Shown here: piece after piece, positions 26,769-59,025 of the stretch
Layout: each line of letters opens with the position of its first letter
Numbering within the stretch: the first letter of the stretch is position 1
Assembly: GCA_013151235.1 (NCBI GenBank)
Contig: JAADIO010000032.1
Location: forward strand, 2,166-66,165
Direction of reading: 5' to 3'
From: Deltaproteobacteria bacterium
Lineage (GTDB): Bacteria; CG2-30-53-67
Length of the DNA: 64,000 nucleotides
The notes under the pieces: model-generated
The model's input: the letters and a program-made list of their open reading frames with translations, nothing else
What the model was told of the DNA's origin: nothing
The model's database searches: none
Program-made: the position numbers and the translations under genes

Positions 26769-26784
26769 TTCCCGGGGACAGGCA

Positions 26785-27984: not shown

Positions 27985-27987
27985 ACG

Positions 27988-29577: not shown

Positions 29578-29581
29578 CCCC

Positions 29582-30677: not shown

Positions 30678-30696
30678 ACACAAAGGAGGAAATCTT

Positions 30697-41679: not shown

Positions 41680-44232
41680 GTGTTGCGGAAACTTGAAGTT
41701 TGGCGGGTCGCCCTGTATACTCGGATTATGGGGTTGACAATGCACCATCAGTCGGGCCGGCTTCTGGAGATCCTGGACAGTCTGAATATTCCGCTCCTTC
41801 TTCTGGATTCCTCCGGCAAAGTGAAGTCCCACAACGGTATGGTCGAGGAGATCTTCGGGTATTCCTCCGCCGATCTGATCGGTCTTCCCTCGAATAACCT
41901 GATTGCACGATTCATAGCGTCCGAAAGTCCGGTCGGCGTCTCCTCTTCGTCCCCCGATCCTTTCCATGCAGATCTTTCTTCCCCCCTGCAACGGGAGGTG
42001 ACCTGCCGGAGAAAAAACGGTGGGGAATTCCCCGCACAGGTGACTTTCATCCCCTGGGGGGACGGGACCTTCCGGTTGATGGCGGTTCAGGATGTCTCCG
42101 GTCAACGGCGTCTGGAACAGCGTGCCACCCAGCGGACCAAGGAACTGACTCTCTTTAATACCTTCGCAGAGATCTTAAGCCGCGGTGGAAAACCCCGCGC
42201 GCTCCTGCAGGAGACCGTCGATATGCTTCCCGGGATCTTGGGGATTAAGGCCGCGATGATTCACCTACAGGATCAAGAGACCGGGAATCTTGTCCCCGCG
42301 GCCCGGCAGGGATTTGACGCTTCCTTTCTGGCTTCGGTAGGGGAGGTGGAACCGGGACAGGGGTTGTTCGGGAAGGTCCTGACCTCCGGGCTGCCTCTCC
42401 TCGTGGAGAAGGCCTCCGAGGATCCCCGAACGCTCAATTTTGATCTGCATCAGAGCGGTCTTCAAAGCTTTGCCTCCGTACCGGTTTCTTCAAAAGGCGC
42501 CGTCCGGGGGGTCCTGACCGTGGCGAGCCGGCGGGTCTCCTCTTTTACCGCCATGGACATGCAACTTCTTGATGCCCTCGGGAGCCAGTTGGGGATCGCC
42601 ATTGAGAATGCGGAACTGATTGCCCAGCTCAAAGAGAAGATGAACCAGATCGCCCTGACCAATGAATTGAGCGGGACGATCAATTCCAGCCTGAGTATCG
42701 GCACGATCTTCCGGATGATGGTTTCGGAAATCCGGAAGTTGATTGAATACGACCGTGCCGGCCTCTTGCTCTACGATGAGAAGAAGGGGAACCTGTTGAT
42801 CTTCGCCCTCGATACGGGGCTGAAGACGGAGATGACCCGGGGGGTTAAGGCACCCATCGAGGGGACCTCGGCCGGTTGGGCCTTAAAGCATAACCGGCCA
42901 TGGATCAATCGGGACCTGCTCTCGGAGATGCTCTTCCCGCTAGACGGAAAGCTGCGCGACGAGGGGATTCGCTCGACTATCAGCATTCCTTTGACCCAGG
43001 AGAAGAGGCTCGGCGTATTCAACCTCGATAGTCGGGAGGCGGCAAAGTATTCGGAAACGGATCTGCAGATCCTTCTGCCGGTGGCGAAACAGATCTCCAT
43101 CGCGCTGGAGAATGCCCTCCTCTTCGAGGAGATCTCGAGGGAAAAGAAGGAGTGGGAGAAGACCTTTGATGCATTTACGGACATGGTTTGGATCGACGAT
43201 CATCGTCAGCGGATCCTTCGGGCGAATCAAGCCCTGCTCCAGGGGGCAGAGGTGACCATGGCGGGGCTTTCGGACCTCCATTGCGCGAATCTGCTCGACC
43301 GGCTCGGCGTCGGTCCTTCCTGTCTGTGCTGCGAGACCGTAACCACGCAGCGCCAGACCTTCCGGGAGGTTCATGGGCGAGAGGGAAAGATCTTCCATTT
43401 CTGGGCTTATCCTCTCCTCGACGATGAGGGACAGCTCTATGCCGTCCTTCACTATCTCAAGGATGTGACGGAACGCAAAAGGCTGGAACAGCAGCTTCTC
43501 CGGGCGGACAAGCTTGCTTCCCTGGTGACGCTGGTGGCGGGAATCGCTCATGAGATCAACAACCCGCTCGGGATTATCGCCGGTTATGCCGAGGCCCTCC
43601 TTGATCGTGCCGGAGATCCTGCTCTTCGGGGGATGGAAGCCTTTGAGGATTTTCCCGAGTATCTGGATACCATCCACAAGGAGATCTTTCGCTGCAAGGA
43701 GACCCTGGGAAGTCTCCTGGAGTTTGCCCGGCCCCACGGGAGAAAGTCCCGGGAACTCGATATCAATGAACTGCTCAAAGAAGTGATCCTCCTGGTGAAT
43801 CACAAGGCCAAACGTCTTCACTGCCGGATTGAGCATCAGCTCAACCGGGAACTGCCGAAGATCTGTGCCGAACCGGGGAGTCTGCGACAACTCTTCATGA
43901 ATATCATCATTAATTCCCTCTACCATACGCCGGAAGGGGGAAAGATCGAGATTACGACGGAACTCAACCGGAACGATCCGAAAGAGATGATCCAGGTGGC
44001 GATTCGTGACACCGGTCCGGGGATCCGACACGAGGTGATCGACAAGATTTTTGATCCCTTCTTTACGACCAAACCGGTCGGGGAGGGGACCGGATTGGGG
44101 CTTTCCATCTGTCACAAAATTGCAGAGGAACACAACGGGGTGATCGATGTCGAAAGTGAGGTCGGCCGCGGCACGACCTTCTTTATCAAGCTGCCTGCGA
44201 AAGGGAACCATGGCCCGGATACTTGTCGTTGA
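41680..44232 (+). CDS. Cytoplasmic multi-sensor histidine kinase (PAS-GAF-GAF-PAS-HisKA-HATPase)
   Basis: 850 aa with no TM segments. H-box [12 protein letters not shown]-box [11 protein letters not shown] and G-boxes [15 protein letters not shown]. Two GAF-like regions. One PAS domain carries an H-C-x13-C-x-C-C cluster. Confidence 0.85.
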
Positions 44233-45574
44233 CGACGAAGAACCCTTTCGTCGCCTGCTGAAAAAAGAACTGACCCGGAAAGGGTTTTCCGTTGAGGTGG
44301 CCCCGGAAGGGGAAACGGCGCTGAAACTTTTGAAGGAGAGTGTCTTTGATCTGCTTCTCCTCGATGTTCTGATGCCGGGACTGGACGGAATTTCCGTGAT
44401 GAAACGGCTGCGTAAGGACCCGACGGCGCCGCCGGTGATCGTCTTGACGGGGAAGGCCACGATTGAAACGGCGGTCGAGGCGATGAAGAACGGCGCCTAT
44501 GACTATCTGACGAAACCCTACAAGCTTGATGAGTTGGAAATCGTCATCAACCGAGCCTGTGAATTCGGGAATTTGAAACACAAAAGCCGGGTACTTGAGC
44601 AGGAGCTGGTTCGAAAAGAATCCAAGGTTGAATTTATCGGGGAAAGCCCGCAGTTCCAGGCGATTTTGACGCTGATTCGCAAGATCGCCCCCACCGACTC
44701 CACGGTTCTTATCCAGGGGGAAAGCGGCACCGGCAAGGAGTTGGTGGCGAATGCCATCTGGCATCACAGCCGTCGGAATAATCTGCCTCTTATCGCCCTG
44801 AACTGTGCCACCCTTTCCGAAACCCTCATGGAATCGGAACTTTTCGGACATGAAAAAGGCGCCTTTACCACGGCTTACCGGACCAAGTACGGTATCGTAG
44901 AGGTTGCCGATAAGGGGACCCTCTTCCTGGATGAGGTGGCCGAGATGCCGATGGGACTCCAGGCCAAGCTCCTCCGCTTTCTTGATCGGGGGGAGTTCCG
45001 TCGTGTGGGCGGAAACAAGACCTTGCAGGTCGATGTCCGGATGATTGCTGCGACCAACAAGAATCTGGAGGAACGGGTTCGGCGGAAAACCTTTCGGGAA
45101 GATCTTTTCTATCGCCTCCATGTGATTAATATCAAGATTCCGCCGCTTCGCGAACGTCCGGAGGATATCCGGGACATTGCCCTTCATTTTGCCAAACAAT
45201 ATTCCCGCAAAATAGGAAAGTCGGTCTGGAAGATTGACGCCGATGCCCTGGGGATTCTCCGGCGTTATGCCTGGCCGGGAAATGTTCGGGAGCTGGAAAA
45301 TGAAATCGAGCGGAGTGTGATCCTCTGTGAAGGCGAGGCGATCGGTGTCCACGACCTTTCGATCGCCGATCGGGTTGCAACGCCCACCTCCGGGACGCAG
45401 CCGATGCTGGAGGAGATCGAGAAGGAGTGTATCCTCAGGGTCCTCCGGGAGACCGGCGGCAACCAGACCCGGGCCAGCAAAATCCTCGGCATCAACCGTA
45501 AAACCCTCTACCTAAAACTTCGCAAATACGGTGCACTTACATCGCAGGATAGCGAGATTCCCCCTGAGGTATAG
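44210..45574 (+). CDS. Sigma-54-dependent response regulator (NtrC family enhancer-binding protein)
   Basis: REC domain (ILVVDDEE...LLLDVLMPGLDG...KP). AAA+ domain with GESGTGKE Walker A and a GAFTTA (GAFTGA-type) loop. C-terminal Fis-type HTH (TRASKILGINRKTLYLKLRKYG). Start set at MARILVVDD, overlapping the kinase stop by 23 nt. Confidence 0.9.
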   Translation: MARILVVDDEEPFRRLLKKELTRKGFSVEVAPEGETALKLLKESVFDLLLLDVLMPGLDGISVMKRLRKDPTAPPVIVLTGKATIETAVEAMKNGAYDYLTKPYKLDELEIVINRACEFGNLKHKSRVLEQELVRKESKVEFIGESPQFQAILTLIRKIAPTDSTVLIQGESGTGKELVANAIWHHSRRNNLPLIALNCATLSETLMESELFGHEKGAFTTAYRTKYGIVEVADKGTLFLDEVAEMPMGLQAKLLRFLDRGEFRRVGGNKTLQVDVRMIAATNKNLEERVRRKTFREDLFYRLHVINIKIPPLRERPEDIRDIALHFAKQYSRKIGKSVWKIDADALGILRRYAWPGNVRELENEIERSVILCEGEAIGVHDLSIADRVATPTSGTQPMLEEIEKECILRVLRETGGNQTRASKILGINRKTLYLKLRKYGALTSQDSEIPPEV

Positions 45575-45600: not shown

Positions 45601-45678
45601 CCGCCTTAGATCTTCTCCTCTTTGGGAAATTCAACATTAACTTTCTTAAATCAACAGGTTAAATGTTTGATGCTGTTA

Positions 45679-45694
45679 TGGCATGGGATTTGCT
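45679..45694 (+). promoter_or_regulatory. Sigma-54 (-24/-12) promoter of the methyltransferase island
   Basis: TGGCATgggatTTGCT. The extended string TTATGGCATnnnATTTGCTGTT is shared with the promoter at 35119. Confidence 0.65.
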
Positions 45695-45707
45695 GTTCTA
45701 TTACGGT

Positions 45708-46070
45708 ATGAACGATATCCTTTTATGCTCATCGGATCCGATCTTCATAAAGAATCTCTACGGGATTCTCCGGGAGGACGGTTACCGTGTCGATATTGCC
45801 GGCCATGCGTCTATGGCCGTCCGGATGGTTTTTGAAAAGAGTTTTGCAGCGGTGATCCTCGATTCCGATGCTGTCGGTATGTCTTCGGGGGAGGCTGCAC
45901 GTATCATTTTGAGAGTCATCTCGGGGATCCCTGTAATTCTTGCAGGGGAAAGTCTGTTACCCGAGGGGGCGTTTTCGATCAGCAAACCTCTGGATCTGGA
46001 GGAGGTCCTGGAGGTTCTTCGAACCGTTCGTTTAATTCATTTTCCGGAAAGGAGTGTGAGCGGCCTATGA
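45708..46070 (+). CDS. Stand-alone receiver (REC)-like protein
   Basis: ~120 aa. CheY-like pattern ILLCSSD...AVILDSD...PVILAG...ISKP, including a candidate phospho-acceptor Asp and a K-P pair. Start set at MNDILL because the sigma-54 promoter lies inside the longer track ORF. Confidence 0.45.
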   Translation: MNDILLCSSDPIFIKNLYGILREDGYRVDIAGHASMAVRMVFEKSFAAVILDSDAVGMSSGEAARIILRVISGIPVILAGESLLPEGAFSISKPLDLEEVLEVLRTVRLIHFPERSVSGL

Positions 46071-47098
46071 CACCACGAGAGATTATTTTGCAGGCCTTTG
46101 AAGGGGGGAAGCCCGAGCGGGTGCCGGTTTCTCTCTTCGGTGCCGGCATGTGGAGCATCAAGAGTTTTGAAAGCAGTTTCGAGGAGTTGTCGACCGATGC
46201 AGCGAAGATGTCGGATATGTTGGTGACCCTGTCGGACAAACTGTTGTGTGATATTGTCTATGCCGGCTCCGGGTACAACAACTTTCACGCCGCTGCGTTC
46301 GGCGGGGAGATCAAGTTTCGTTCCATGGGAGCGCCGGATCTGAAGGAACATCTCGTTTCCTCCGTGGAGGACATTGAAAAATTTGATCTATCGGCGCTCG
46401 ACAATGAAGCGACCCTCAATATCGTCAAGGATGCCCTGCATCGTACACGGGAACAGATCGGTGACAAATATGTGGTGAGCATGACGGCCTGGGGACCCTT
46501 TACCCTCGGGGCACGTTTCGTCGGGGAAGAGACGATGATGAAGGCGACCTTCAAGAATCCCGACCTGGTCCACCGGGTCACTGATTTTGCAACGGACCTT
46601 CTGATCCATCTTTATGAACCCCTGGTTGATGACGGGACGCTGGAAGTGATCAGTCTGGCCGATCCGACGGCCTCGGGGGACCTGATTTCCCGCAAGCAGT
46701 TTGAAAAGTTTGCCGTTCCCTACCTGAAAAAGTTTACCGACTGGGCCAGATCGAAGAAGGCGTATACCCTCCTGCACATTTGCGGGAATACGACGGACCG
46801 CCTGGATGTGATGCCCGGGACCGGGGCGAGCTGTATCAGCCTGGATCACAAAACCGATATCGGGAAGGCCTATGAGGCACTCCACGGAAGGATCTGTTTT
46901 GCCGGCAATGTGGATCCTGTCGGTGTCATGCTTCAGGGCTCGGTCGACGATGTGGAGAGGGCCTGCCGGGAGGTGATCGAAAGGGCCGGCACGGAGGGGG
47001 GGTTCGTTCTCATGCCGGGATGCGATATTCCGCCGACCGTCCCTTATGAAAATATTCGGAAATTCATCCAGGTCGCGCGGGAGTGGAAATTGACATAA
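46067..47098 (+). CDS. MtaA/CmuA-type (URO-D fold) methylcobamide methyltransferase, paralogue 1
   Basis: 343 aa. URO-D family pattern with LHICGNT (H-x-C) and MPGCDIPP (C) zinc ligands, as in methylcobamide:CoM methyltransferases. ATGA overlap with the REC gene. Confidence 0.8.
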   Translation: MTPREIILQAFEGGKPERVPVSLFGAGMWSIKSFESSFEELSTDAAKMSDMLVTLSDKLLCDIVYAGSGYNNFHAAAFGGEIKFRSMGAPDLKEHLVSSVEDIEKFDLSALDNEATLNIVKDALHRTREQIGDKYVVSMTAWGPFTLGARFVGEETMMKATFKNPDLVHRVTDFATDLLIHLYEPLVDDGTLEVISLADPTASGDLISRKQFEKFAVPYLKKFTDWARSKKAYTLLHICGNTTDRLDVMPGTGASCISLDHKTDIGKAYEALHGRICFAGNVDPVGVMLQGSVDDVERACREVIERAGTEGGFVLMPGCDIPPTVPYENIRKFIQVAREWKLT

Positions 47099-47251
47099 GG
47101 CGAAGAGGGGGTAGTAAGTCCGTGTTGTTCAGGTCCCATTGACCTTGTGAGAGAGGGGGTTGTGATGGGTACATTCTGGGAAAATCTCAAAAATATGTTT
47201 GTGCGGACTGTTCCTCCGGGAGCAGCCGGGCAATCGCAGAAAGGAGCTGCC

Positions 47252-47698
47252 ATGGCTGACGAAAAGAAGATGACGCTGGAAGAAGTAAATCAGTATATGC
47301 AGGAAAAGTGCGGGTTCGTGCCGAGGATGTTCAAGATTATCAATACCGTGACGCCGGAGCCCGGCCGAACCTTTGCCGATTTCTACGCGAGCATTTTCGG
47401 GGAGGGCGCACTTTCCAAGAGCGTCAAGGAATTGATGTTCATGTCCGGTGGTGTCGCCTACTGTTCGCCTCGCTGCATCATTCATGTCGTACCGGCGATC
47501 AATGCCGGTGCAACGTCGGAACAGGTCTTCGAGGCGGCGTCCGTCGGGATGATCCTGGCCGGTTTTGTCCCGAACGGTCCGGGAATTCCCTATGCCTTTG
47601 AATATGCCTTGAAGTGCATTGACATCGACACGAAGTTCCGGAAGGGCGAGGAGTGGGAATACCTGCCGCCCCCGAAATTTGATCACGGGATTTACTGA
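47252..47698 (+). CDS. Carboxymuconolactone decarboxylase / AhpD-like family protein
   Basis: ~148 aa. KELMFMSGGVAYCSPRCIIHV resembles the AhpD-core Cys/His segment, though the Cys spacing is atypical. The ATG at 47252 lies 5 nt after AAGGAG. Confidence 0.5.
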   Translation: MADEKKMTLEEVNQYMQEKCGFVPRMFKIINTVTPEPGRTFADFYASIFGEGALSKSVKELMFMSGGVAYCSPRCIIHVVPAINAGATSEQVFEAASVGMILAGFVPNGPGIPYAFEYALKCIDIDTKFRKGEEWEYLPPPKFDHGIY

Positions 47699-47775
47699 GC
47701 GCTTCAGCCGCGGGAGGGGGGAATCCCCCCTCTTTTGCCCCCCTCCTGCGGATTTTACCCATTTTTAATTTAAGG

Positions 47776-48747
47776 ATGATACATATGTTCACCTTTGAAA
47801 CGGAACAAAAGGTTTGCAAGATCGGCGGATTAAAGGTTGGAGGCCGACCGGCGGAAAATCCCCCTCTCCTGATTGCCTCCATGTTTCATAACAAGGACCG
47901 AATCCTGCAGGATCGTAAAGGGAATTTCGACCGCGTCCGGGCGACAGAACTGATCCGGAAGCAGGAAGAGCTGACCGAAGCCACCGGCATTCCCGGTATG
48001 GTGGCCATGATGGCCAATTCCGCCGGGGAAGCAAAGATCTATATCGATTTCTTTGTGGAAACCACCGACATGCCCTTCGCCATCGATATGTGGGTTGCCG
48101 AGAAACGGATGGCCGCGACGGAATATGTGGCGAAGTTAGGTCTGCAGGACCGGTTTGTCTATAACAGTATTACCCCCTGGGACAAGGACATTCCGGGGCA
48201 GGTGCAGCGGGTCAAAGAGCTCGGCATCAAACACGTATTTGTCCAGGCCTTTGATGATGCCGATCAGTCTCCGAAAGGACGGCTGACCTCATTGGAAAAA
48301 TTGCTTGATCAGGGAGCGGGTGATTTCGAGTCGGTCCTTGTCGATTCCTCGGTGATGAATCTTCCCGCTGCCTCTTTCTCCATGCTGGCAAACCGGATGA
48401 TCAAAGAGAAGTTAGGGCTCCCCTGCGGAAGCGCCTATTCCAATGGCACCCACATGTGGAAAGAGGCCAAGGAGATCTGGGGGCTCGACGGTTTCAAGGC
48501 GATGGATGCTGTGGCCCAGGGGATGTCGACGGCCCTCTGGTCGGATTTTAATTTTTACGGTCCCATCGTGACGGCGCCCCGGATCTTCCCCGGTGTGGCC
48601 ACGGCAAACATCCTGCTTTCGACCCTGGTCTTTGATGAAACCGGGGAGGTCTCGGAAAATGAAGACCTGCCGATCCGGAAGCACTTTTCGGAATTTCTTG
48701 AGAAGATGATCGCCGGTGGTGCAAGAAAAAAGGCGCAGGCCCGATAA
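47776..48747 (+). CDS. MtrH-like pterin-binding methyltransferase (methylcorrinoid:tetrahydrofolate/H4MPT type)
   Basis: 323 aa. CKIGGLKVGGRPAENPPLLIASMFH...AIDMW...YNSITPW resembles the tetrahydromethanopterin S-methyltransferase subunit H family. Confidence 0.75.
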   Translation: MIHMFTFETEQKVCKIGGLKVGGRPAENPPLLIASMFHNKDRILQDRKGNFDRVRATELIRKQEELTEATGIPGMVAMMANSAGEAKIYIDFFVETTDMPFAIDMWVAEKRMAATEYVAKLGLQDRFVYNSITPWDKDIPGQVQRVKELGIKHVFVQAFDDADQSPKGRLTSLEKLLDQGAGDFESVLVDSSVMNLPAASFSMLANRMIKEKLGLPCGSAYSNGTHMWKEAKEIWGLDGFKAMDAVAQGMSTALWSDFNFYGPIVTAPRIFPGVATANILLSTLVFDETGEVSENEDLPIRKHFSEFLEKMIAGGARKKAQAR

Positions 48748-48780
48748 TCGATAACCCTAATATCAGAAGGAGAAAACGTT

Positions 48781-49803
48781 TTGACGGAAACCATGACATC
48801 AAGAGAACGGGTACTGAGACTGTTTCGGGGGGAACCGACGGATCGTCCGGCCTGTTTCAGCGGGATGGGTAATGCGACAACGGAAGGGCTGAACCAGCTC
48901 GGCTACAAGTTTGCCCAGGTTCATCTCGATGCGAAACAGATGGCGGAGACGGCCATGACGACGCCCCGGCTTTTCGGGTTTGACGCCTGCGTCCTTCCGT
49001 TTGACCTCTGTGTCGAAGCGGAAGCGATGGGCGCAAGGATCAATACCTATTCGAACTCGGACGACCTGCTCTATCCCACGATCAAAGAGAAGGTAATCCA
49101 TGGCGAAGAGGAGATGGAGATCAACCTCCCCTCCGACCTGGTCACGCGCGGGCGGATCCCCCTCATGAAGGAGGCGATCGGGATCGCCAGGGAAACCATC
49201 GGAGAGACCGTGGCGATCGGTTCTTACCTGCTCGGACCGTTTACGCTCGCCGGTCAGATCATGGAACTGAACGATCTGCTGAAACTTTCTTTCAAGAAAC
49301 CGGACAAGGTCGGGAAACTTCTGGCCGATCTGACCTGCGTGATCGTGGCGGTTGCGAAGGAGTATGAAGCGGCCGGTGTTGACTACCTGACGGTACGGGA
49401 GATGGGTGCAACCTCCGACGTGTTGAGCCCCAGGGTTTTCAAGAGCCTGATACTGCCCCATCTCAAGAATATTTTCGAACAGATCAGTGTTCCCAGTGTG
49501 CTGCATATCTGCGGCAAGACGAACAACATCGTCGTTCCGATGGTGGAAACGGGTGCGACGGCCATCAGTGTTGACCAGAAGAATGATGTGGTCGACAGCC
49601 GGAAAAAGCTCGGATCCGATGCCCTGATTTTCGGGAACTACGACCCCTATAACGTGCTTGTTTCGGGTACGCCGGAACTGGTCAAAGAGGCGATGCAAAA
49701 GTGTTTGGAAGACGGCGTCAGTGCCGTCTGGCCCGGCTGTGATATCTGGCCCACGGTGCCGGCGGAGAATTTTAAGGCCATGATGGAAACCATGAATGAA
49801 TAG
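48781..49803 (+). CDS. MtaA/CmuA-type (URO-D fold) methylcobamide methyltransferase, paralogue 2
   Basis: 340 aa. RERVLRLFRGEPTDRPA N-terminus, with VLHICGKT (H-x-C) and WPGCDIWP (C) zinc ligands. TTG start after AAGGAGAA, or the ATG at 48793. Confidence 0.8.
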   Translation: MTETMTSRERVLRLFRGEPTDRPACFSGMGNATTEGLNQLGYKFAQVHLDAKQMAETAMTTPRLFGFDACVLPFDLCVEAEAMGARINTYSNSDDLLYPTIKEKVIHGEEEMEINLPSDLVTRGRIPLMKEAIGIARETIGETVAIGSYLLGPFTLAGQIMELNDLLKLSFKKPDKVGKLLADLTCVIVAVAKEYEAAGVDYLTVREMGATSDVLSPRVFKSLILPHLKNIFEQISVPSVLHICGKTNNIVVPMVETGATAISVDQKNDVVDSRKKLGSDALIFGNYDPYNVLVSGTPELVKEAMQKCLEDGVSAVWPGCDIWPTVPAENFKAMMETMNE

Positions 49804-49817
49804 TCAGGAGGCATGGA

Positions 49818-50513
49818 ATGGCAACTGAAGAGAGAACCCGGGAAATCCTGGAGAAAATGGAGAAAGCCGTGATTGAGTATGACGAAGATGCGGCCAAGGA
49901 GGGTGCCCAGGCGGCCCTCGATGAAGGGGTCAATCCCAATGATGCCATCTTCGACGGTCTGGTCAGCGGGATGCAGGAAGTCGGCAAGCTCTTTGAGGCC
50001 GAAGAGTATTTCGTCCCGGAGCTGCTCATGTGCGCCGATGCCCTTTATGCCGGTCTCGATATCTTAAAACCCCATGTGAAACAGCTCGACCTGGGGGTGA
50101 AAGGCTCGGTGGTGATCGGTACCGTGGAGGGAGATGTTCACGATATCGGGAAGAACATCGTGAAGATGATGTTCGATGTCGCCGGGTTTGAGGTCCATGA
50201 CCTGGGACGGGATGTGCCGCTGGATCAGTTTGTTGAGGAACAGATCAAAACCGATTCCGAACTGGTCTGCCTCTCCGCCATGATGACGACGACCATGATG
50301 GGGATGCAGAAGGTCATCGAGGACCTGAAGAAGAAGAATCCCGATATCAAGATCATGATCGGCGGTGCTCCCGTTTCCGGTGATATCGCCGAGAAATGGG
50401 GAGCGGACGGCTATGCCGATGACGCGACCAATGCCCTCGCAGATGCCATCAACATGGTCAGCTCTCTGAAAAAGATGAAGGAAGAAGCGGAAGCCAGGGA
50501 AAAACGGAAGTGA
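49818..50513 (+). CDS. Corrinoid (B12-binding) protein, MtaC/MtbC/MttC-like
   Basis: 231 aa. N-terminal helical cap domain, then a Rossmann B12 domain with GTVEGDVHDIGKN (DxHxxG), SAMMTTT (SxL-type) and IGGAPV (GG). Confidence 0.9.
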   Translation: MATEERTREILEKMEKAVIEYDEDAAKEGAQAALDEGVNPNDAIFDGLVSGMQEVGKLFEAEEYFVPELLMCADALYAGLDILKPHVKQLDLGVKGSVVIGTVEGDVHDIGKNIVKMMFDVAGFEVHDLGRDVPLDQFVEEQIKTDSELVCLSAMMTTTMMGMQKVIEDLKKKNPDIKIMIGGAPVSGDIAEKWGADGYADDATNALADAINMVSSLKKMKEEAEAREKRK

Positions 50514-51175
50514 GCAGTGCATTCTTGAAAAAGATGCTCCTCGGTTCCGGGGCGACCGTGGTGGGTGTGGCGGAACTGGATGCGTATCTTGACGGAGAGA
50601 TCCGTCATCTCAACCGAGGGGTTTCCATCGCGGTGGACCGGACGCTTCGGGAAGATACCCTGAAACATCTGGGCCGGCTGCAGAAAAAAGTGGTCCGCTA
50701 TCTGAAAGGGAAGGGATTCCGTACCCTCAGTATCCCCCCTGATTCGGACCGCATCCGGAATAAGTTTGTTGCCGAACTTTATTCCCTTTTGACCCACAAG
50801 ATGGCAGCCACCTGCGCGGGGATCGGCTGGATCGGGCGGAATGGGTTACTGATCAGTCCCCATTTCGGGCCGCGGCTTTCCCTGGCGACGGTCCTGACCG
50901 ATGCGCCCCTGAAGAGCGATATTCCCTATGAACAGAGCCGTTGCGGCAATTGCCGGCTTTGTGTTGACTACTGCCCGTCGAAGGCGATCACGGGCAAAAC
51001 CTGGTCCCGGCGGGACCCTTACAGCGGCCTGGTCAAGCCCCACCGGTGTCGTGTACACAAAGAGGGGGCCCGGGGAGTGACGGATCGGCCCAATTGCGGT
51101 CTCTGCCTGCAGATCTGCCCCTACGGGCGGGCGAAAGGGAGGACCAAACCGAAAGATGTTATGGAGATTGTATAA
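50510..51175 (+). CDS. QueG/RdhA-like 2x[4Fe-4S] ferredoxin-domain protein
   Basis: 221 aa. GWIGRNGLLISPHFGPRLSLATVLTDAPL is an epoxyqueuosine-reductase-like core. Two cluster motifs are present, CGNCRLCVDYCP and CGLCLQICP. 4-nt overlap with the corrinoid protein gene. Confidence 0.6.
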   Translation: MSSAFLKKMLLGSGATVVGVAELDAYLDGEIRHLNRGVSIAVDRTLREDTLKHLGRLQKKVVRYLKGKGFRTLSIPPDSDRIRNKFVAELYSLLTHKMAATCAGIGWIGRNGLLISPHFGPRLSLATVLTDAPLKSDIPYEQSRCGNCRLCVDYCPSKAITGKTWSRRDPYSGLVKPHRCRVHKEGARGVTDRPNCGLCLQICPYGRAKGRTKPKDVMEIV

Positions 51176-51177
51176 AG

Positions 51178-53154
51178 ATGAGCAGCAAATATAAAGTGAA
51201 TTTTCAGCCCTCGGGAAGTCGGGGGGAAGTGGATGCAGGGAAAACCCTCCTTGATGCGGCCCAGCGTTTAGGGGTTGATCTGGAATCAGTCTGTGGCGGC
51301 AAGGGGACCTGCGGGAAATGCAAGGTCCGTGTTGAGGAAGGATATTTTGAAAAAGATGCCATGGAATCAAGAATGTCCCATCTGTCTCCTCTGACGGACG
51401 TGGAACGCAAATTCATCAAACCGGAAGACGGACCCCGAATGCGTTTGGCCTGTGCCGCCGAGGTGCGGGGGGATGTGAAACTTTTCGTGCCGGAAAAGTC
51501 CCGTGCCGGGAAACAGATCGTTCGCAAGGCCGCAAAAGATATTACGATCGCCCTCGACCCCGCCGTGAAAAAATATTGTATCCGGCTGGATGCCCCGACC
51601 CTGCACGATCTTTCCAAGGGGGATCTTGAACGGATTCTGGGGGCGCTGAAAATGGAGTACAACCTGGAAAACCTTGCCATAGACTATCTGGTCCTCCAGA
51701 AGCTCCAGGATATTCTTCGGGCCGGGAACTGGGAGGTGACGGTTTCGGTCTGGAAAGGCAAAGAGATCATCAAGGTGGAGCCGGATTTTGTGGACGTCTC
51801 CTACGGTCTGGCCGTGGATGTCGGGACGACGACGGTGGCAGCCTATCTGTGTGATCTGAACACGGGCAAGGTGCTTAACACCGAATCGATGATGAATCCC
51901 CAGGTCCCGTACGGCGAAGATGTCATGTCGAGGATTACTTACGCCATGACCCATGACGACGGTCTTGCGATCATGCAGAAGGCAATCATCGAGGGCTTAA
52001 ACGATCTGATTGAGAAGATTACCGCCGACATCCGTTCCAACGGAACGCCCGGCGGTACCTCCATCGTCGATATGACGGTGGTTTTTAATACCGCCATGCA
52101 TCACATCTTCCTGGGATTCAACCCGGTCTACATCGGACGGTCTCCCTTTATTCCTGCCGTGCAGGATTGTGTTGATCTCAAGGCACGGGATCTGGGACTT
52201 CAAATCAATGAAGCTTCCTACATTCATGTCCTTCCCATTGAGGCCGGTTTTGTCGGCGCCGACAATGTGGGGGTTCTCATCGCCGAAGAGCCGTACAATT
52301 CCGAGGACAATGTCCTGATTATCGACATCGGGACGAACGGTGAACTCCTCCTCGGGAACAAGCATGCGGTCTGTTCCACTTCCTGCGCTACGGGACCGGC
52401 CTTTGAAGGGGCCCAGATCAAGTTCGGAATGCGAGCCGCCCCGGGAGCGATTGAAAAGGTCCGGATCGATCCGGAGACGAAAGAGCCACAGTACAAGGTG
52501 ATCGGCAAGGCCGACTGGCATACCCATATCAAGGATGTCAATGCCAAGGGGATCTGCGGTTCCGCCATCATCGACGTGATTGCCGAGATGTTCAAGGCGG
52601 GAGTCATCGACAAGTCCGGGAAATTCGTCAAGGATCTTGACATACCCCGCATCCGGAAGGATGCCGACGGCAAACCGGAGTACGTCCTGGCCTGGGCGGA
52701 TGAAACCTCCATCGGGAGCGACATCACCGTGACGCAGGGGGATGTCCGGGCGTTGCAGCTCGCCAAGGGGGCACTCTACGCCGGGGCGAAACTGATGATG
52801 CAGAAGATGGGGATCGAAAAACTCGACCGGGTGGTTCTGGCGGGGGCCTTCGGGAGTCATATCAATACGGAGGCCTCGATGACCCTCGGGATGTTCCCCG
52901 ATTGTGCCATCGAAAAGGTCTATGCCGTGGGGAATGCCGCCGGCGACGGGGCGATCATGGCCCTGCTGAACCTGGGGAAACGACGTGAGGCCGGCGAAAA
53001 GGCCCGGTGGGTCCGGTTCCTGGAGATTGCCGTGGAGCCGGAATTTGAAAAGGAATTCATGAAGGCGATGCATATTCCGCACATGAAGGATCCTTTTCCC
53101 AATCTCAAGTCGTTGCTGGAGAAGGACCATTTGCCGGTGACGATCAAGGGGTGA
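51178..53154 (+). CDS. Reductive activator of corrinoid proteins (RACo / ASKHA-fold, N-terminal [2Fe-2S] ferredoxin)
   Basis: 658 aa from MSSKYKVNF. Plant-type ferredoxin motif CGGKGTCGKCKV...C, then a large ASKHA ATPase region (GLAVDVGTTTVAAYL, IIDIGTNGE). Start moved from 51046 to the ATG at 51178, 2 nt after the upstream stop. Confidence 0.85.
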   Translation: MSSKYKVNFQPSGSRGEVDAGKTLLDAAQRLGVDLESVCGGKGTCGKCKVRVEEGYFEKDAMESRMSHLSPLTDVERKFIKPEDGPRMRLACAAEVRGDVKLFVPEKSRAGKQIVRKAAKDITIALDPAVKKYCIRLDAPTLHDLSKGDLERILGALKMEYNLENLAIDYLVLQKLQDILRAGNWEVTVSVWKGKEIIKVEPDFVDVSYGLAVDVGTTTVAAYLCDLNTGKVLNTESMMNPQVPYGEDVMSRITYAMTHDDGLAIMQKAIIEGLNDLIEKITADIRSNGTPGGTSIVDMTVVFNTAMHHIFLGFNPVYIGRSPFIPAVQDCVDLKARDLGLQINEASYIHVLPIEAGFVGADNVGVLIAEEPYNSEDNVLIIDIGTNGELLLGNKHAVCSTSCATGPAFEGAQIKFGMRAAPGAIEKVRIDPETKEPQYKVIGKADWHTHIKDVNAKGICGSAIIDVIAEMFKAGVIDKSGKFVKDLDIPRIRKDADGKPEYVLAWADETSIGSDITVTQGDVRALQLAKGALYAGAKLMMQKMGIEKLDRVVLAGAFGSHINTEASMTLGMFPDCAIEKVYAVGNAAGDGAIMALLNLGKRREAGEKARWVRFLEIAVEPEFEKEFMKAMHIPHMKDPFPNLKSLLEKDHLPVTIKG

Positions 53155-53164
53155 GACGTCGAAA

Positions 53165-53482
53165 ATGACCCGTGTGAAAATCGACCCGGGCGTCTGTGGT
53201 TTTCCCGCTCTCGTGACGGTCGAAAAAAAGGACAGGCAGCACTTTCGGGTAACGATCGAGTCCAATTGTGAAATGGTACGGAAATTGGGAGAGGAAATTG
53301 CATCCCTGACGATGCAGGATGCCTTCATCCGGTTTTCCGATAACCGGGTCTATGAGAAGGCCTCAACCTGTCTGAAACACACGGCCTGTCCGGTCCCGTC
53401 GGGCATCCTGAAGGCCCTGGAGGTTGAGGCCGGTCTGGCGGTGCCGCGGAACGTAACGGTGGAATTTCTTGCCGGGGAGTGA
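53165..53482 (+). CDS. Small conserved-Cys hypothetical protein
   Basis: 105 aa with four Cys (C11, C35, C69, C75). Translationally coupled to the next gene by a 4-nt overlap. Confidence 0.4.
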   Translation: MTRVKIDPGVCGFPALVTVEKKDRQHFRVTIESNCEMVRKLGEEIASLTMQDAFIRFSDNRVYEKASTCLKHTACPVPSGILKALEVEAGLAVPRNVTVEFLAGE

Positions 53483-54744
53483 CAGTGATGAGCGACTATC
53501 TTCTGCATTGCCGGAAATGCGGTGCTCTTTTGCAGCCGCAAGAGTCCGCTTCCGGGGTTCATTGTCCCGATGCCTTGATGAAAAGTGAATTTCCCGACCG
53601 GCGGTTCCGCCTTGAGGGGCGTCGGGGGATCTGGCGCTTCAACTGGCTTCCGGTGCATGCACCCCGTGAAGATACCGCCGCACCGGTGGTTTATCACGCG
53701 GAGGGGCTGGGGCGGCGTCTTGGACTTCGGCATCTCTTTGTCGTATTCAACGGTTTCCGGCCGGAAAAGGGGGCGGAGATCGAGACCTGTACCTTCAAAG
53801 AGTTCGAGGCCGAGGTTGTTCTGCAAAACGCACGGGAACTTGGAAAGGGCGGCCTCGTCGTCGCCTCGGCGGGGAATACCGCCCGCGCCTTTGCCCACCT
53901 TTCGATTCGGACCGATTTCCCCGTGTTCATTGTGGTTCCACGCATGTGTCTTCATGAGATGTGGTTTCTGAAGTCGAAGGAGTCCGTTCCGACGGCTGTC
54001 CTGCAGGACGGTGACTATGCCGACGCCATCGATGTGGCCGAGCGGATCGCCCGGATTTCAGGTATTCCCTTCGAAGGAGGGGTACGCAATTCGGCCAAGC
54101 GGGACGGACTCGGTGTCGTACTGATGGAAGCGGTCTCCTTCCTCGGCCGCCTGCCCGATGCCTATTTTCAGGCAGTCGGGAGCGGCGCCGGGGCGGTGGC
54201 CACCTGGGAGATGGCGGAACGGTTTTTGCGGGACGGCCGTTTCGGGAACCGGCTTCCCCGTCTCCACCTGGCACAGAATCTCCCCTTTGCACCCATGTTT
54301 CATGCCTGGAGACGGGGGGAACGGAATCTGAAACCTGAGGACCTTGATCCGGGCCTGATTGAGAAGATTTCCACCCGGGTTCTGTCCAGTCGTTATCCCG
54401 CCTATTCGATTCTGGGGGGGGTCTACGATGCCTTGACGGCATCCGGGGGGAACATGTACGGGATTACCAACGGAGGGATGGCCGAGGCCCGGACGCTCTT
54501 CGAAGAAACGGAAGGGGTCGATATCGTTCCCGCGTCGGCCATTGCCCTGGCGGCACTGAAAGAGGCCGTAGCGGCGGAAGAGGTCTCTCCCGACGAGCTG
54601 ATCCTGCTCAATATCACCGGGGGTGGGGAAAGGGCCATCCGGCGTGCGGGACGTGCCGTCCCGGTGGCGGGAGACGCAATCTCGAAAAATATTACGGATG
54701 ATGAAATCGAAGAACTTTTATGCACAGTCCTGAAAAAGAGCTGA
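53479..54744 (+). CDS. Threonine-synthase-fold PLP enzyme, cysteate synthase-like
   Basis: 421 aa. N-terminal Cys ribbon (HCRKCG...HCPD), TFKEFEA (PLP-Lys region), ASAGNTARAF and LNITGGG. Its size, ribbon and pairing with ComDE mirror archaeal cysteate synthase. I cannot exclude a different beta-replacement specificity. Confidence 0.55.
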   Translation: MTVMSDYLLHCRKCGALLQPQESASGVHCPDALMKSEFPDRRFRLEGRRGIWRFNWLPVHAPREDTAAPVVYHAEGLGRRLGLRHLFVVFNGFRPEKGAEIETCTFKEFEAEVVLQNARELGKGGLVVASAGNTARAFAHLSIRTDFPVFIVVPRMCLHEMWFLKSKESVPTAVLQDGDYADAIDVAERIARISGIPFEGGVRNSAKRDGLGVVLMEAVSFLGRLPDAYFQAVGSGAGAVATWEMAERFLRDGRFGNRLPRLHLAQNLPFAPMFHAWRRGERNLKPEDLDPGLIEKISTRVLSSRYPAYSILGGVYDALTASGGNMYGITNGGMAEARTLFEETEGVDIVPASAIALAALKEAVAAEEVSPDELILLNITGGGERAIRRAGRAVPVAGDAISKNITDDEIEELLCTVLKKS

Positions 54745-58762: not shown

Positions 58763-58820
58763 GATGTCCCTTTTTATCCACAGAACCGGTCGGTGAATCT
58801 CTGACCTCGAAGATTCGGCC

Positions 58821-58985
58821 GCTCATTTCCAGGCAGGTCTTCTGACTCTCGGTTCGTCCTACTTACCGTGTCTTCCCATCGTATTTCCCGACAGTGACAT
58901 CTTTCGGTTTTCGTCCCCGATCACAGCGGCGGGCCCGTCCCCGTTTTTACGGGATTCCCTTCTCAGCTCCTCATGGAAGCACCTG
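58821..58985 (-). promoter_or_regulatory. Cobalamin (B12) riboswitch aptamer
   Basis: The minus-strand RNA contains AAGGGAAUCCCGUAAAAACGGGGACGGGCCCGCCGCUGUGA, ...CACUGUCGGGAA...GAUGGGAAG..., and a canonical B12 box AGUCAGAAGACCUGCC (58832-58847). Confidence 0.9.
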
Positions 58986-58996
58986 AAAATATCCGA

Positions 58997-59025
58997 ACTT
59001 TACTTGAAAAACCCTGCAGAGTCAA
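58997..59025 (-). promoter_or_regulatory. Sigma-70-type promoter candidate for the riboswitch-btuFCD transcript
   Basis: Minus strand TTGACT, a 17-nt spacer, then TAAAGT. The predicted start lies just upstream of the aptamer 5' end. Confidence 0.5.

Follow-up and report, generated by a model that had tools for sequence, protein, structure and literature searches.

A candidate sigma-54-controlled operon for corrinoid-dependent, coenzyme M-linked methyl transfer in a non-methanogenic bacterium

Organization of the locus

The 64,000-nt window, that is, the whole stretch of DNA analysed, contains an operon extending from position 45663 to 55856, in which neighbouring genes either overlap or are separated by 2-150 nt (features are on the plus strand unless stated otherwise). 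It is preceded by genes for a sensor histidine kinase (41680..44232; PAS-GAF-GAF-PAS-HisKA-HATPase by Pfam; start codon uncertain), which adjoins the cluster in many related loci, and for an NtrC-type sigma-54-dependent response regulator (44147..45574, likely start near 44210), recognized by its Pfam domains (Response_reg, Sigma54_activat, HTH_8) and by synteny. The first operon gene (45663..46070) specifies a small receiver-like protein with a weak Response_reg match (20.8 bits, under cut-off) and 31-81% identity across related loci. Its stop overlaps the start of uroD1; its true start is probably near 45709, on the 3' side of a sigma-54 -24/-12 promoter-like site, TGGCATGGGATTTGCT (45679..45694, plus strand). 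This putative promoter has one mismatch to TGGCAC-N5-TTGCW, and 48 of 77 related loci have a TGGCA[CT]-N5-T[TC]GC[AT] sequence upstream of the UroD1 gene, usually by about 390 nt.

Two proteins with the URO-D fold (Pfam URO-D, 207.8 and 229.5 bits), UroD1 (46067..47098; 343 aa) and UroD2 (48781..49803; 340 aa), flank an MtrH-family methylcorrinoid:pterin methyltransferase (47776..48747; 323 aa). A previous sequence-only reading of positions 46067-49803 had reported this arrangement of paralogues, each with an H-x-C motif and a downstream Cys, and we confirm its ORFs and motif strings. The genes of its three-methyltransferase layout are all present; what it overlooked is an ORF between UroD1 and MtrH for a CMD/AhpD-like protein (47252..47698; Pfam CMD 24.2 bits, cut-off 23). 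This ORF opens at 47147, with a likely start at 47252; it is 64-94% identical in related loci, where C110, H113 and C157 (ORF numbering) are invariant. The MtrH-like ORF matches PF02007 (185.3 bits) and passes NF002142 (333.7, cut-off 287), while its TIGR01114 score (168.9) falls under the cut-off of 271.4. Among solved structures it matches 8Z9U_B at 181 bits and Desulfitobacterium hafniense MtgA (6SJ8) at 127 bits. By homology, it is an MtgA/MtoA-like enzyme and not a subunit of the Mtr complex.

A single corrinoid protein (49818..50513; B12-binding_2 and B12-binding domains, DxHxxG at 50133-50150) begins just beyond the range covered by the previous reading, whose proposal of a pterin-type methyltransferase and one corrinoid protein serving both paralogues is supported. 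The corrinoid protein matches the B12 region of MetH at 125 bits. It is followed by a two-[4Fe-4S]-type protein similar to the Fe-S portion of QueG and reductive dehalogenases (50510..51175), a possible electron donor that has seven of eight conserved Cys in two CxxCxxCxxxC-like groups. Present in Nitrospirota-type clusters and with a 36% identical homologue in the mlp-like locus L088, it was not found in Chloroflexota-type modules. Next come a RACE/RACo-type reductive activase of corrinoid enzymes with 2Fe-2S and ASKHA parts (51178..53154; Pfam RACo_C_ter 321 bits, Raco_middle, RACo_linker, Fer2) and a DUF6951 protein (53165..53482) with invariant C11, C35, H72 and C75 and a weakly IscU/SufE-like fold. 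Convergent with the operon, on the minus strand, lies a BtuD/BtuC/BtuF-type ABC importer (55892..58690; Pfam ABC_tran, FecCD, Peripla_BP_2); upstream of it, on the same strand, is a cobalamin riboswitch (58815..59001), which matches Rfam RF00174 at 104.7 bits against a gathering score of 31.5; no other riboswitch was detected in the window.

Both URO-D proteins carry the zinc-ligand residues of MtaA

TLLHICGNT and LMPGCDIPP are read in UroD1, SVLHICGKT and VWPGCDIWP in UroD2. When aligned by phmmer to solved Methanosarcina mazei MtaA (4AY7/4AY8), H-I-C-G of both proteins matches VLHICGN and the PGC motif matches APGCGIAP. These columns were named from the MtaA zinc ligands, which we take to be His240, Cys242 and Cys319 after tag offset. 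The corresponding codons are at 46775-46777 (H237), 46781-46783 (C239) and 47021-47023 (C319) in UroD1, and at 49504-49506 (H242), 49510-49512 (C244) and 49738-49740 (C320) in UroD2. His/Cys/Cys is invariant in 82/82 UroD1 orthologues and 63/63 UroD2 orthologues, at overall identities of 59-92%; hence the site does not reflect chance. Equivalence of these residues to the MtaA ligands, as the sequence-only reading had proposed, is thus borne out by the alignment. Because both sites are of the thiol type, the pterin would be the only encoded non-thiol methyl partner. The earlier scheme of donor, thiol and pterin branches presumed that one URO-D protein was a non-thiol donor enzyme, and is not supported in that form.

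The alignments also bear on whether the operon could support methylotrophy of the O-demethylase or halomethane type, like that of acetogens or of archaea with the Mto system, with UroD1 as an MT-I for methoxylated aromatics, methanol-like donors or chloromethane and MtrH as the MT-II to the pterin. The combination of methyltransferase, MtrH-like enzyme, corrinoid protein and RACE does resemble MtoABCD and MtgABC, and CmuA comes under TIGR01463, a profile that UroD2 passes. However, MT-I enzymes in the MtvB/OdmB/MtoB/CdmB clade have about 430 residues, and the ligand columns read S-F-Q in CdmB (9RUI), which is reported to be zinc-free (PMC13222342); they read Y-A-S in uroporphyrinogen decarboxylase 1J93. 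That O-demethylases share the motif, as remarked previously, is at odds with the replacement of one or both Cys ligands stated for UroD-family O-methyltransferases in PMC10418091. The paralogues are also much nearer to MtaA, which matches UroD2 at 157 and UroD1 at 100 bits, than to CdmB, a member of the O-demethylase/haloalkane clade with a solved structure, which matches UroD2 at 25 bits and UroD1 not at all at E<=0.001. The likeness to Mto suggested earlier is confined to the MtrH-like enzyme, corrinoid protein and RACE; MtoB-type O-demethylases, 47-48 kDa proteins of the MtvB clade (PMC8630106), are absent. As it also fails to account for the linkage to CoM genes described below, we hold this explanation to be very unlikely; the best reading is that the system is neither an O-demethylase nor Mto.

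UroD2 resembles MtaA and UroD1 resembles mlp-type proteins

UroD2 classifies as an MtaA/CmuA-family methylcobamide:thiol (probably CoM) methyltransferase. It passes NF004889 (256.4, cut-off 244) and TIGR01463 (238.6, cut-off 235.4), the latter taking in CmuA too, and lies far under the equivalog cut-offs for MtaA (242 against 400) and MtbA (171 against 600). Its match to 4AY7 (156.7 bits) spans the full length, with 31% identity to MtaA; genuine CoM methyltransferases share only about 30% identity among themselves (PMC10418091). An MtrH::UroD2-type fusion of 662-672 aa, which shares 52.5% identity with UroD2 over its C-terminal half, was seen in six protein clusters.

UroD1 is assigned to an uncharacterised Mlp-like clade of URO-D-fold Zn-thiolate-type corrinoid methyltransferases and scores under even the subfamily cut-offs. 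Its closest described relatives are in bacterial 'mlp' clusters (PMC10418091), which the sequence-only reading had left unconsidered: the UroD1 type is 39-42% identical to one of three URO-D proteins of mlp-like clusters L088 and L089. These clusters hold nitrogenase-like, NMT1-ABC, DMSP-lyase-like and Met-gamma-lyase genes, and all of their URO-D proteins compared have the His/Cys/Cys site. The operon might alternatively serve mlp-type salvage or catabolism of methyl-sulfur or methyl-selenium compounds, with a folate methyltransferase added. UroD1 and UroD2 would demethylate two small methyl-chalcogenides (e.g. DMS then methanethiol; dimethylselenide/methylselenol) and MtrH would pass the methyl groups to H4folate; CoM would not be the acceptor and the sulfonate genes would serve otherwise. 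ClMlp2 is reported to methylate selenide/sulfide, with genetic evidence in M. voltae (PMC10418091), and FolD or MTHFR within related clusters suits methyl oxidation. On the other hand, UroD2 scores higher with MtaA (156 bits) than with the Mlp-type proteins it was compared to (101-129 bits), and methyl transfer from thioether to folate would be strongly uphill, judging by the reactions of Mtr and methionine synthase. Two unrelated CoM gene types, embedded or translationally coupled in two phyla, are left unexplained as well. On balance we consider this alternative rather unlikely.

Coenzyme M genes accompany the module in two phyla

The last two operon genes encode a ThrC-derived, archaeal-type cysteate synthase (CysS; 53479..54744; TIGR03844 448.7, cut-off 324.9) and a fused sulfopyruvate decarboxylase, ComDE (54720..55856; TIGR03845 179.2, cut-off 147.95). 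The cysS start overlaps the DUF6951 stop, and cysS and comDE overlap too. CysS matches solved cysteate synthase 9K3C at 301 bits versus 52 bits for threonine synthase. The ComDE beta-domain scores 206.2 with TIGR03846, just short of 221.5. With the phosphonopyruvate decarboxylase profile, ComDE also stays below cut-off (191 against 312.5). Neither a protein for the final CoM step (ComF/MMP16 or other COG1900 protein) nor a cysteate aminotransferase was found in the locus, and in relatives no further plus-strand gene follows ComDE.

A scan of species genomes yielded 169 stretches with a UroD1 relative, from which 80 loci were fetched. The order UroD1-CMD-MtrH-UroD2-CoP-Fer4-RACE-DUF6951-(0-3.3 kb)-CysS-ComDE recurs among them, in Nitrospirota/Thermodesulfovibrionia genomes, and six further metagenome contigs agree. 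CysS follows DUF6951 in 42 of the 52 loci holding DUF6951; the remaining 10 end within 3.6 kb. In 44 of 49 Nitrospirota loci with room, a DsrM/HdrE-like membrane protein and an HdrD/TfrB-like CCG protein lie between DUF6951 and CysS. The window lacks the HdrD-like pair found in most relatives. FolD is encoded inside related clusters at 17 loci and MTHFR at L090 and L094.

The Chloroflexota-type modules, with identities of 41-46% for the UroD2 type and 40-47% for the UroD1 type, adjoin genes of the unrelated bacterial XcbA-E CoM pathway, which stand beside the module in nine contigs. In L101 they are nested between corrinoid protein and MtrH (RACE-UroD2-CoP-XcbA family-ComA/XcbB-XcbC-XcbD-DUF1326-PpoB2-XcbE-MtrH), with scores above cut-off for the XcbA family (452, cut-off 150), ComA/XcbB (302, 280) and XcbD (680.5, 600) and just below it for XcbC (566.5, 575) and XcbE (388.5, 450); XcbD of L087 scores 659 (cut-off 600). 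CoM is the sole product common to the archaeal-type and Xcb pathways (PMC9457059, PMC11844431). No CoM gene was found within 10 kb at L085, L091, the L133-type variant or L090/L096/L100/L103; L085 and L091 carry a TauA/NMT1-like ABC importer and also the DsrM/HdrE-like and HdrD/TfrB-like pair.

The thiol chemistry proposed by the sequence-only reading gains support from this context, evidence that it did not include, because CoM precursor genes share the operon here and unrelated Xcb-type genes accompany the Chloroflexota-type modules.

A proposed CoM-linked methyl-transfer system

Since UroD1, UroD2 and the MtrH-type enzyme share one B12 protein and an operon with CoM precursor genes, folate/CoM methyl exchange is probable. 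We favour, with a modest degree of confidence, a sigma-54-controlled operon whose core would perform corrinoid-dependent, CoM-linked methyl transfer in a bacterium of a lineage like Nitrospirota/Thermodesulfovibrionia; a "methanogen" cofactor would then probably trade methyl groups with folate in bacteria that are not methanogens. The best reading is of a split system like MetH that passes methyl groups back and forth between H4folate, CoM (through UroD2) and, through the Mlp-like UroD1, another thiol or a selenol. The analysis establishes the domains, the conserved ligands, the layout of the operon and its comparative setting; CoM as the thiol, every substrate and the direction of flow are inferred. 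The corrinoid protein would alternate between Co(I) and CH3-Co(III), with RACE rescuing Co(II), possibly fed by the neighbouring Fe-S protein. The MtrH-like enzyme would exchange methyl groups with H4folate, and MtaA-type UroD2, its His/Cys/Cys zinc activating the thiol, would swap them with CoM, whose precursor sulfoacetaldehyde would be supplied by CysS and ComDE from the same transcript. UroD1 might carry out zinc-thiolate exchange with another small thiol/selenol or with the corresponding methyl (seleno)ethers; sulfide/methanethiol/DMS and their selenium counterparts are examples. Together, MtrH, UroD2, corrinoid protein and RACE would function as a 'methyl-H4folate:CoM methyltransferase' made of separate proteins, akin to MetH or to a soluble Mtr. 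The reaction of CH3-H4MPT with HS-CoM releases about 30 kJ/mol (approximately -30 kJ/mol), and on thermodynamic grounds net flow from folate to thioether would be easier.

We count in favour of CoM the family assignments and MtaA-equivalent ligands, the operon structure, the synteny in Nitrospirota, the apparently convergent linkage of the module to CysS/ComDE and Xcb genes, the MtrH::UroD2-type fusion, the likeness of UroD2 to MtaA, the putative disulfide reductase context (the HdrDE-like pair of relatives), the folate context suggested by FolD/MTHFR, and the likely corrinoid supply next door from the riboswitch-linked Btu-type importer. Counted against it are the sub-cut-off scores of UroD1/UroD2, the ComDE beta-domain, XcbC and XcbE, the missing last CoM step, the modules with no CoM gene within 10 kb, and the lack of an HdrD-like pair in the window; moreover, we know of no bacterial enzyme that consumes methyl-CoM.

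The four parts MtrH (folate), UroD2 (homocysteine-type zinc), corrinoid protein and RACE would correspond one-to-one to the four MetH modules, and might simply replace MetH as a split cobalamin-dependent methionine synthase. The MetH match of the corrinoid protein fits this, as does the methionine end product suggested for mlp clusters (PMC10418091). Yet control by a sensor kinase and sigma-54 activator is not typical of amino-acid biosynthesis, the one riboswitch found in the window is the cobalamin one at the transporter, and neither the co-transcribed sulfonate genes nor the second URO-D protein would have a role. We give this explanation very little credence.

Comparison with known systems

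Our literature search found no published description of this system. The system as proposed here shares with MtaA/MtbA/MtsA, the soluble CoM methyltransferases (SCMT) of methylotrophic methanogens, the URO-D TIM-barrel of about 340 aa, the zinc columns, passage of MtaA/CmuA subfamily cut-offs (UroD2) and an MtaC/MtbC-like corrinoid partner. It differs in its bacterial host, sub-equivalog scores, lack of Mcr and of an MtaB/MttB-type donor methyltransferase in the locus, bacterial-type RACE, and pairing (fusion in relatives) with an MtrH-type folate enzyme.

In Methanosarcina, CmtA and the membrane-bound Mtr complex resemble it in the proposed pterin/CoM methyl transfer via a corrinoid and in the use of an MtrH homologue to bind the pterin; CmtA was reportedly described by Vepachedu and Ferry in 2012 as transferring methyl from methyl-H4MPT/H4SPT to CoM. 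Unlike Mtr, the locus has no MtrA-G subunits, and since the proteins here are soluble, no sodium pumping is expected.

Type 1 mlp clusters (Kountz & Balskus, bioRxiv 2023, PMC10418091) likewise combine bacterial SCMT homologues, in which His/Cys/Cys is invariant, with a single corrinoid protein and a RACE; they are, however, mostly from Firmicutes and lack an H4folate methyltransferase, whereas MtrH, a distinct UroD2 type, CMD, DUF6951 and CoM-pathway genes occur here, with the HdrDE-like pair in relatives. That paper makes no mention of Nitrospirota, MtrH or cysteate. D. hafniense MtgA and M. shengliensis MtoA resemble the MtrH-like enzyme by the NF002142 and MtgA matches and by adjoining corrinoid protein and RACE genes, but their donor enzymes are of MttB type (MtgB) or MtvB type (MtoB) in place of two thiol-type URO-D proteins with CoM-pathway genes; the hosts neither make nor use CoM, or the step proceeds without it (PMC8630106). 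Bacterial CoM has so far been known only for alkene/epoxide metabolism, not methyl transfer (PMC9457059, PMC11844431), and the Xanthobacter XcbA-E set is the one carried by the Chloroflexota-type relatives. Compared with the archaeal type 2 route (cysteate synthase-ComDE-MMP16), MMP16/ComF is missing beside ComDE, but cysteate synthase and ComDE are adjacent in the order of M. acetivorans MA3297-MA3298 (PMC11844431).

The two URO-D proteins carry a predicted zinc site of the MtaA type

The two URO-D-fold proteins flanking the MtrH-like gene, UroD1 (46067-47098, + strand; 343 aa, Pfam URO-D 207.8 bits) and UroD2 (48781-49803, + strand; 340 aa, 229.5 bits), were aligned by phmmer with the solved MtaA of Methanosarcina mazei (4AY7/4AY8). 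UroD2 gave a full-length match (156.7 bits) and UroD1 was matched over residues 114-336 (100.3 bits). The motifs quoted in the sequence-only reading were found where it had placed them: the H-I-C-G of both proteins falls on VLHICGN of MtaA and the P-G-C on APGCGIAP, in the columns of the residues that we take to be the MtaA zinc ligands (His240, Cys242 and Cys319 after the tag offset). All three residues are invariant in the orthologues from related loci (82/82 for UroD1, 63/63 for UroD2), and the same columns read S-F-Q in CdmB (9RUI) and Y-A-S in a true uroporphyrinogen decarboxylase; the motif is therefore real and not a chance resemblance. With His-x-Cys and the distal Cys in the MtaA columns, both URO-D proteins are predicted zinc-thiolate S-methyltransferases. 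In the O-methyltransferases of the URO-D superfamily, one or both Cys ligands are replaced (PMC10418091).

UroD2 scores above both MtaA/CmuA subfamily cut-offs (TIGR01463, 238.6 against 235.4; NF004889, 256.4 against 244) and UroD1 scores below them (176.5 and 171.1, respectively). Neither protein passes the MtaA and MtbA equivalog models NF040654 (cut-off 400) and NF041608 (cut-off 600), where a pass would signify the same function as the methanogen enzymes: UroD2 reaches 242 and 171, UroD1 146 and 150. An alignment of 14 proteins resolved four URO-D types, every one with H-I-C-G and the distal Cys. The UroD1 type takes in one of the three URO-D proteins of each of the mlp-like clusters L088 and L089 (39-42% identity), the UroD2 type takes in an MtrH fusion protein and the URO-D protein L087_UroDb (46-52%), and L088 and L089 supply two further Mlp-like types. 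Identity to MtaA is 30-34% for the UroD2 type and one Mlp type and 24-29% for the rest; among MtaA, MtbA and MtsA, too, identity is only about 30% (Kountz and Balskus, PMC10418091).

Membership in an O-demethylase (Mto) system was rejected, as the operon has no MT-I of the MtvB/OdmB/MtoB/CdmB clade (about 430-450 aa) and both URO-D proteins are about 340 aa long. The MtrH-family methylcorrinoid:pterin methyltransferase, corrinoid protein and reductive activase (RACE, with RACo domains) that mark Mto/Mtg systems are nonetheless present. The O-demethylases of the MtoB/MtvB type are 47-48 kDa proteins forming a separate clade (PMC8630106), and CdmB, which belongs to it, is zinc-free (PMC13222342). 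CdmB gave 25 bits against UroD2 and no hit against UroD1, compared with 157 and 100 bits for MtaA. Since the clade is separate, and CdmB is zinc-free and barely matches the pair, the clustering with O-demethylase enzymes that would have undone the sequence-only reading is not seen.

A type 1 mlp cluster is defined as having at least Mlp2 and Mlp3, a corrinoid protein and RACE, with no H4folate methyltransferase (PMC10418091). The operon in the window has a corrinoid protein, RACE and the MtrH-like gene. In comparisons with the proteins of L088 and L089, identity to one mlp-like URO-D type is 39-42% for UroD1, and UroD2 reaches only 24-29% with the two remaining types. From the relative distance to MtaA, we infer that UroD1 might be the counterpart of "Mlp2".

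Organization of the methyltransferase operon

The genes lie on one strand from 45663 to 55856, with ends overlapping or 2-150 nt apart, in the order small receiver-like ORF, UroD1, CMD, MtrH-like, UroD2, corrinoid protein, Fe-S protein, RACE, DUF6951, cysteate synthase and ComDE (a fused sulfopyruvate decarboxylase). The operon was found to have no strong terminator or sigma-70 promoter in its interior. Upstream genes encode a histidine kinase with PAS and GAF domains and a sigma-54 activator of the NtrC type, and a sigma-54 -24/-12-like site, TGGCATGGGATTTGCT (45679-45694, + strand), falls within the annotated start of the small receiver-like ORF. Of 77 related loci, 48 have a site of the form TGGCA[CT]-N5-T[TC]GC[AT] 5' of UroD1, in most cases at a distance of about 390 nt. 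The position of this conserved site within the annotated start suggests that the true start of the small ORF is further downstream.

The MtrH-family ORF (47776-48747, + strand; 323 aa) matches PF02007 with 185.3 bits, NF002142 with 333.7 (cut-off 287) and the solved structure 6SJ8 with 127 bits. Membership in the Mtr complex was rejected (TIGR01114, 168.9 against 271.4), and none of the subunits MtrA-G was found among the Pfam-scanned ORFs of the window. The corrinoid protein (49818-50513, + strand) has the DxHxxG motif, and RACE (51178-53154, + strand) is of the bacterial kind. Between these two lies a 221-aa protein of the two-[4Fe-4S] type (50510-51175, + strand), resembling the Fe-S region of QueG and reductive dehalogenases, which might be the electron donor for RACE. 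It occurs in Nitrospirota-type clusters and not in Chloroflexota-type modules, and has a 36% identical homologue in L088.

Between UroD1 and the MtrH-like gene there is also a CMD/AhpD-like ORF (47147/47252-47698) that the sequence-only reading had overlooked. Its residues C110, H113 and C157 are invariant; Cys106 (window 47462-47464), the first Cys of its C-x3-C-x2-H motif, is Met in 15 of 73 orthologues. The DUF6951 protein (53165-53482, + strand) gave a pLDDT of 47 when modelled with AlphaFold from the single sequence, and the modelling was rerun on a 40-sequence alignment. A protein 100% identical to it (P0331; locus tag GXP58_06155) is labelled "Deltaproteobacteria bacterium" in NCBI.

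Convergent to the operon at its 3' side is an importer gene set (Peripla_BP_2/FecCD/ABC_tran; 55892-58690, - strand) preceded by a cobalamin riboswitch (58815-59001, - strand; RF00174, 104.7 bits). The importer is probably a BtuFCD-type corrinoid uptake system.

Coenzyme M precursor genes close the operon

The last two genes (53479-55856, + strand) encode archaeal-type enzymes for coenzyme M (CoM) precursors and show translational coupling to the end of the methyltransferase operon. Cysteate synthase (53479-54744, + strand) scores 448.7 with TIGR03844 (cut-off 324.9), and 301 bits against the solved 9K3C versus 52 bits against threonine synthase. In ComDE (54720-55856, + strand) the alpha domain is above cut-off (179.2 against 147.95) and the beta domain just under (206.2 against 221.5). 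The alternative that this TPP enzyme is phosphonopyruvate decarboxylase was rejected: that model gave 191 for a cut-off of 312.5, and both ComDE domains do better relative to their cut-offs.

The locus lacks both the aminotransferase and the CoM synthase of the last step. No model for the synthase ComF/MMP16 (COG1900), the enzyme of the final thiolation, matched any of the ten operon proteins, and ComDE is the last operon gene in the relatives inspected, with no MMP16/COG1900 gene after it. Candidates considered for the missing synthase were DUF6951, CMD and the Fe-S protein, and nothing was found in favour of any of them. DUF6951 and CMD also occur in modules linked to the bacterial (Xcb) CoM pathway or having no CoM genes.

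Conservation in Nitrospirota

At E<=1e-10, 1461 homologues of UroD1 were retrieved. The best 120 homologue clusters are 73-91% identical to it, and those that bear a name are from Nitrospirota MAGs. In a scan with one genome per species, 169 stretches encode a UroD1 relative; the best 80 of these are 70-91% identical and nearly all from Nitrospirota/Thermodesulfovibrionia. As the close relatives of the operon are all labelled Nitrospirota/Thermodesulfovibrionia, the source MAG may have been assigned to the wrong taxon.

With the window proteins as tblastn queries, the related loci showed this gene order on every contig of sufficient length. DUF6951 is followed by cysteate synthase in 42 of 52 loci, the remaining ten ending within 3.6 kb. 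A DsrM/HdrE-like membrane protein and an HdrD-like Fer4+CCG protein precede cysteate synthase in 44 of the 49 loci with room for them; examples of such inserts after DUF6951 are L004 17951-19863 and L021 17753-20599. The best NCBIfam match of the HdrD-like protein is TfrB, a subunit of CoM/CoB-dependent fumarate reductase (173 bits, below cut-off). FolD is also present in this interval in 17 loci. Neither the window nor the loci closest to it (L001, L009, L018, L040 and L063) have the HdrE/HdrD-like insert, and no homologue of it was found elsewhere in the 64 kb of the window. Together, CMD and the HdrDE-like pair of the relatives suggest an accompanying thiol-disulfide chemistry.

A second, unrelated CoM pathway adjoins homologous modules

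When cluster representatives were searched exhaustively with HMMER, UroD1 had its next relatives at 38-48% identity; all are unnamed "uroporphyrinogen decarboxylase family" proteins, several from Chloroflexota. Two such loci, L085 and L091, have the order CMD, UroD1 type (44-46% identity), DUF6951, RACE, TauA/NMT1-type ABC importer, MtrH::URO-D fusion, corrinoid protein and NarI-like plus HdrD-like proteins; L091 additionally has genes for Rieske, cytochrome b and cytochrome c proteins. The fusion (662-672 aa; L085 11025-13019, L091 10001-11998) is found in six protein clusters. Its C-terminal half is 52-54% identical to UroD2, and its existence supports a joint action of the MtrH and UroD2 parts. 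The possibility that the importer of L085 and L091 supplies CoM in place of biosynthesis was not adopted, because the mlp-like L088 and L089 also have a TauA/NMT1-type importer.

A metagenome scan with Chloroflexota-type UroD2 queries identified nine contigs with Xcb genes beside the module. XcbA-E clusters, complete or partial, are embedded in or adjacent to the module in L101, L087, L094, L097, L107, L111, L113, L114 and L116, a result that concerns these homologous modules and not the window. In L101 (3432-11433) the methyltransferase operon encloses the whole bacterial CoM pathway, the order being RACE, UroD2, corrinoid protein, XcbA family, ComA/XcbB, XcbC, XcbD, DUF1326, PpoB2, XcbE and MtrH. 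XcbA family (452 against 150), ComA/XcbB (302 against 280) and XcbD (680.5 against 600) are above cut-off; XcbC (566.5, cut-off 575) and XcbE (388.5, cut-off 450) are best hits just under it. In L087 the module lies beside XcbD (659, cut-off 600), XcbE (406, cut-off 450) and the end of XcbC. The DUF1326-PpoB2 pair recurs between XcbD and XcbE in Chloroflexota-type contigs.

The archaeal route proceeds through cysteate, sulfopyruvate and sulfoacetaldehyde, the Xcb route through phosphosulfolactate, sulfoacrylate, 3-sulfopropionylcysteine and sulfoethanethioaldehyde, and their sole common element is the end product, CoM (PMC9457059, PMC11844431). The strongest evidence on the nature of the thiol is that two unrelated CoM pathways attach to homologous modules in two phyla; for this reason we infer that the thiol served by this system would be CoM.

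Some related modules have no CoM genes within 10 kb. A third variant, L133 (1235-14039), with like arrangements in L144, L154, L159, L164 and L171, has a DUF5940 protein, a short URO-D protein, a corrinoid protein, GntR, RACE fused to a pyridine-nucleotide-disulfide oxidoreductase (1150 aa), MtrH, UroD2 type, an FAD oxidase, a CCG protein and a branched-chain-type ABC transporter. This variant showed no CoM genes within reach.

A possible route between methyl-H4folate and methyl-CoM

The four modules of methionine synthase would have their counterparts in the MtrH-like protein (pterin barrel), UroD2 (zinc-thiol barrel), the corrinoid protein (cap and Rossmann B12 module) and RACE (reactivation module). 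By analogy with ClMlp2 and SdmC of M. voltae (PMC10418091), UroD1 would add a third partner, most likely a small thiol or selenol or the corresponding methyl (seleno)ether. Of the branched methyl flow proposed in the sequence-only reading, the thiol and pterin chemistry is retained and the "Mto/Mts-like donor branch" is not supported: as both URO-D proteins are of the thiol type, H4folate is left as the sole encoded methyl partner that is not a thiol. In the reactions of Mtr and of methionine synthase, the direction from folate to thioether is favoured. By analogy, methyl flow in this direction would be favoured here; the FolD or MTHFR of related clusters would fit either direction.

We consider it possible, while leaning slightly against it, that members of at least two bacterial phyla (Nitrospirota/Thermodesulfovibrionia and Chloroflexota) make CoM by two unrelated pathways and employ it to carry methyl groups in a soluble corrinoid system linking methyl-H4folate, methyl-CoM and a second methyl-thiol or -selenol, mostly together with an HdrDE/DsrMK-like quinone-linked disulfide reductase. 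If so, a C1 metabolism dependent on CoM would operate outside the archaea and without methyl-CoM reductase. We know of no bacterial methyl-CoM sink. In the literature found, methyl-CoM chemistry belongs to methanogens and alkane-oxidising archaea, and the sole known role of bacterial CoM is that of a carrier in alkene/epoxide metabolism (PMC9457059, PMC11844431). No published description of this cluster was found; the nearest work is the mlp-cluster preprint (PMC10418091), which mentions neither Nitrospirota nor MtrH nor cysteate, and "MtaA" is noted in passing in a Thermodesulfovibrionia MAG (PMC9326234).

A CoM-dependent methyl metabolism in bacteria is plausible and potentially important. 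Should the coupling of MtaA- and MtrH-like enzymes to CoM hold, common bacteria of the subsurface, groundwater, soil and vents would contain pools of CoM, and possibly of methyl-CoM, a breadth that rests on the 169 stretches with a UroD1 relative and on many metagenome contigs with related modules. Metagenome hits to "mtaA" or "mtrH" would then no longer be markers of methanogenesis or simple methylotrophy, and an unrecognised bacterial route may join folate C1 units to volatile methyl-sulfur and methyl-selenium compounds. The operon would represent a naturally split counterpart of methionine synthase and of the Mtr reaction, whose soluble proteins lend themselves to expression and assay.

Remainder of the window

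The rest of the window showed no metabolic link to the cluster. It contains a large exopolysaccharide/PEP-CTERM exosortase locus (14-24129, - strand, and 25098-33248, + strand) with genes for Wzy_C, carbamoyltransferase, glycosyltransferases, asparagine synthase, radical SAM/SPASM, FemAB-like, DUF3485 and EpsH proteins. This locus is followed by a type II secretion/type IV pilus-like set (T2SSE, T2SSF, PilM, secretin and TPR); GH57, AsmA and chaperones are also encoded.
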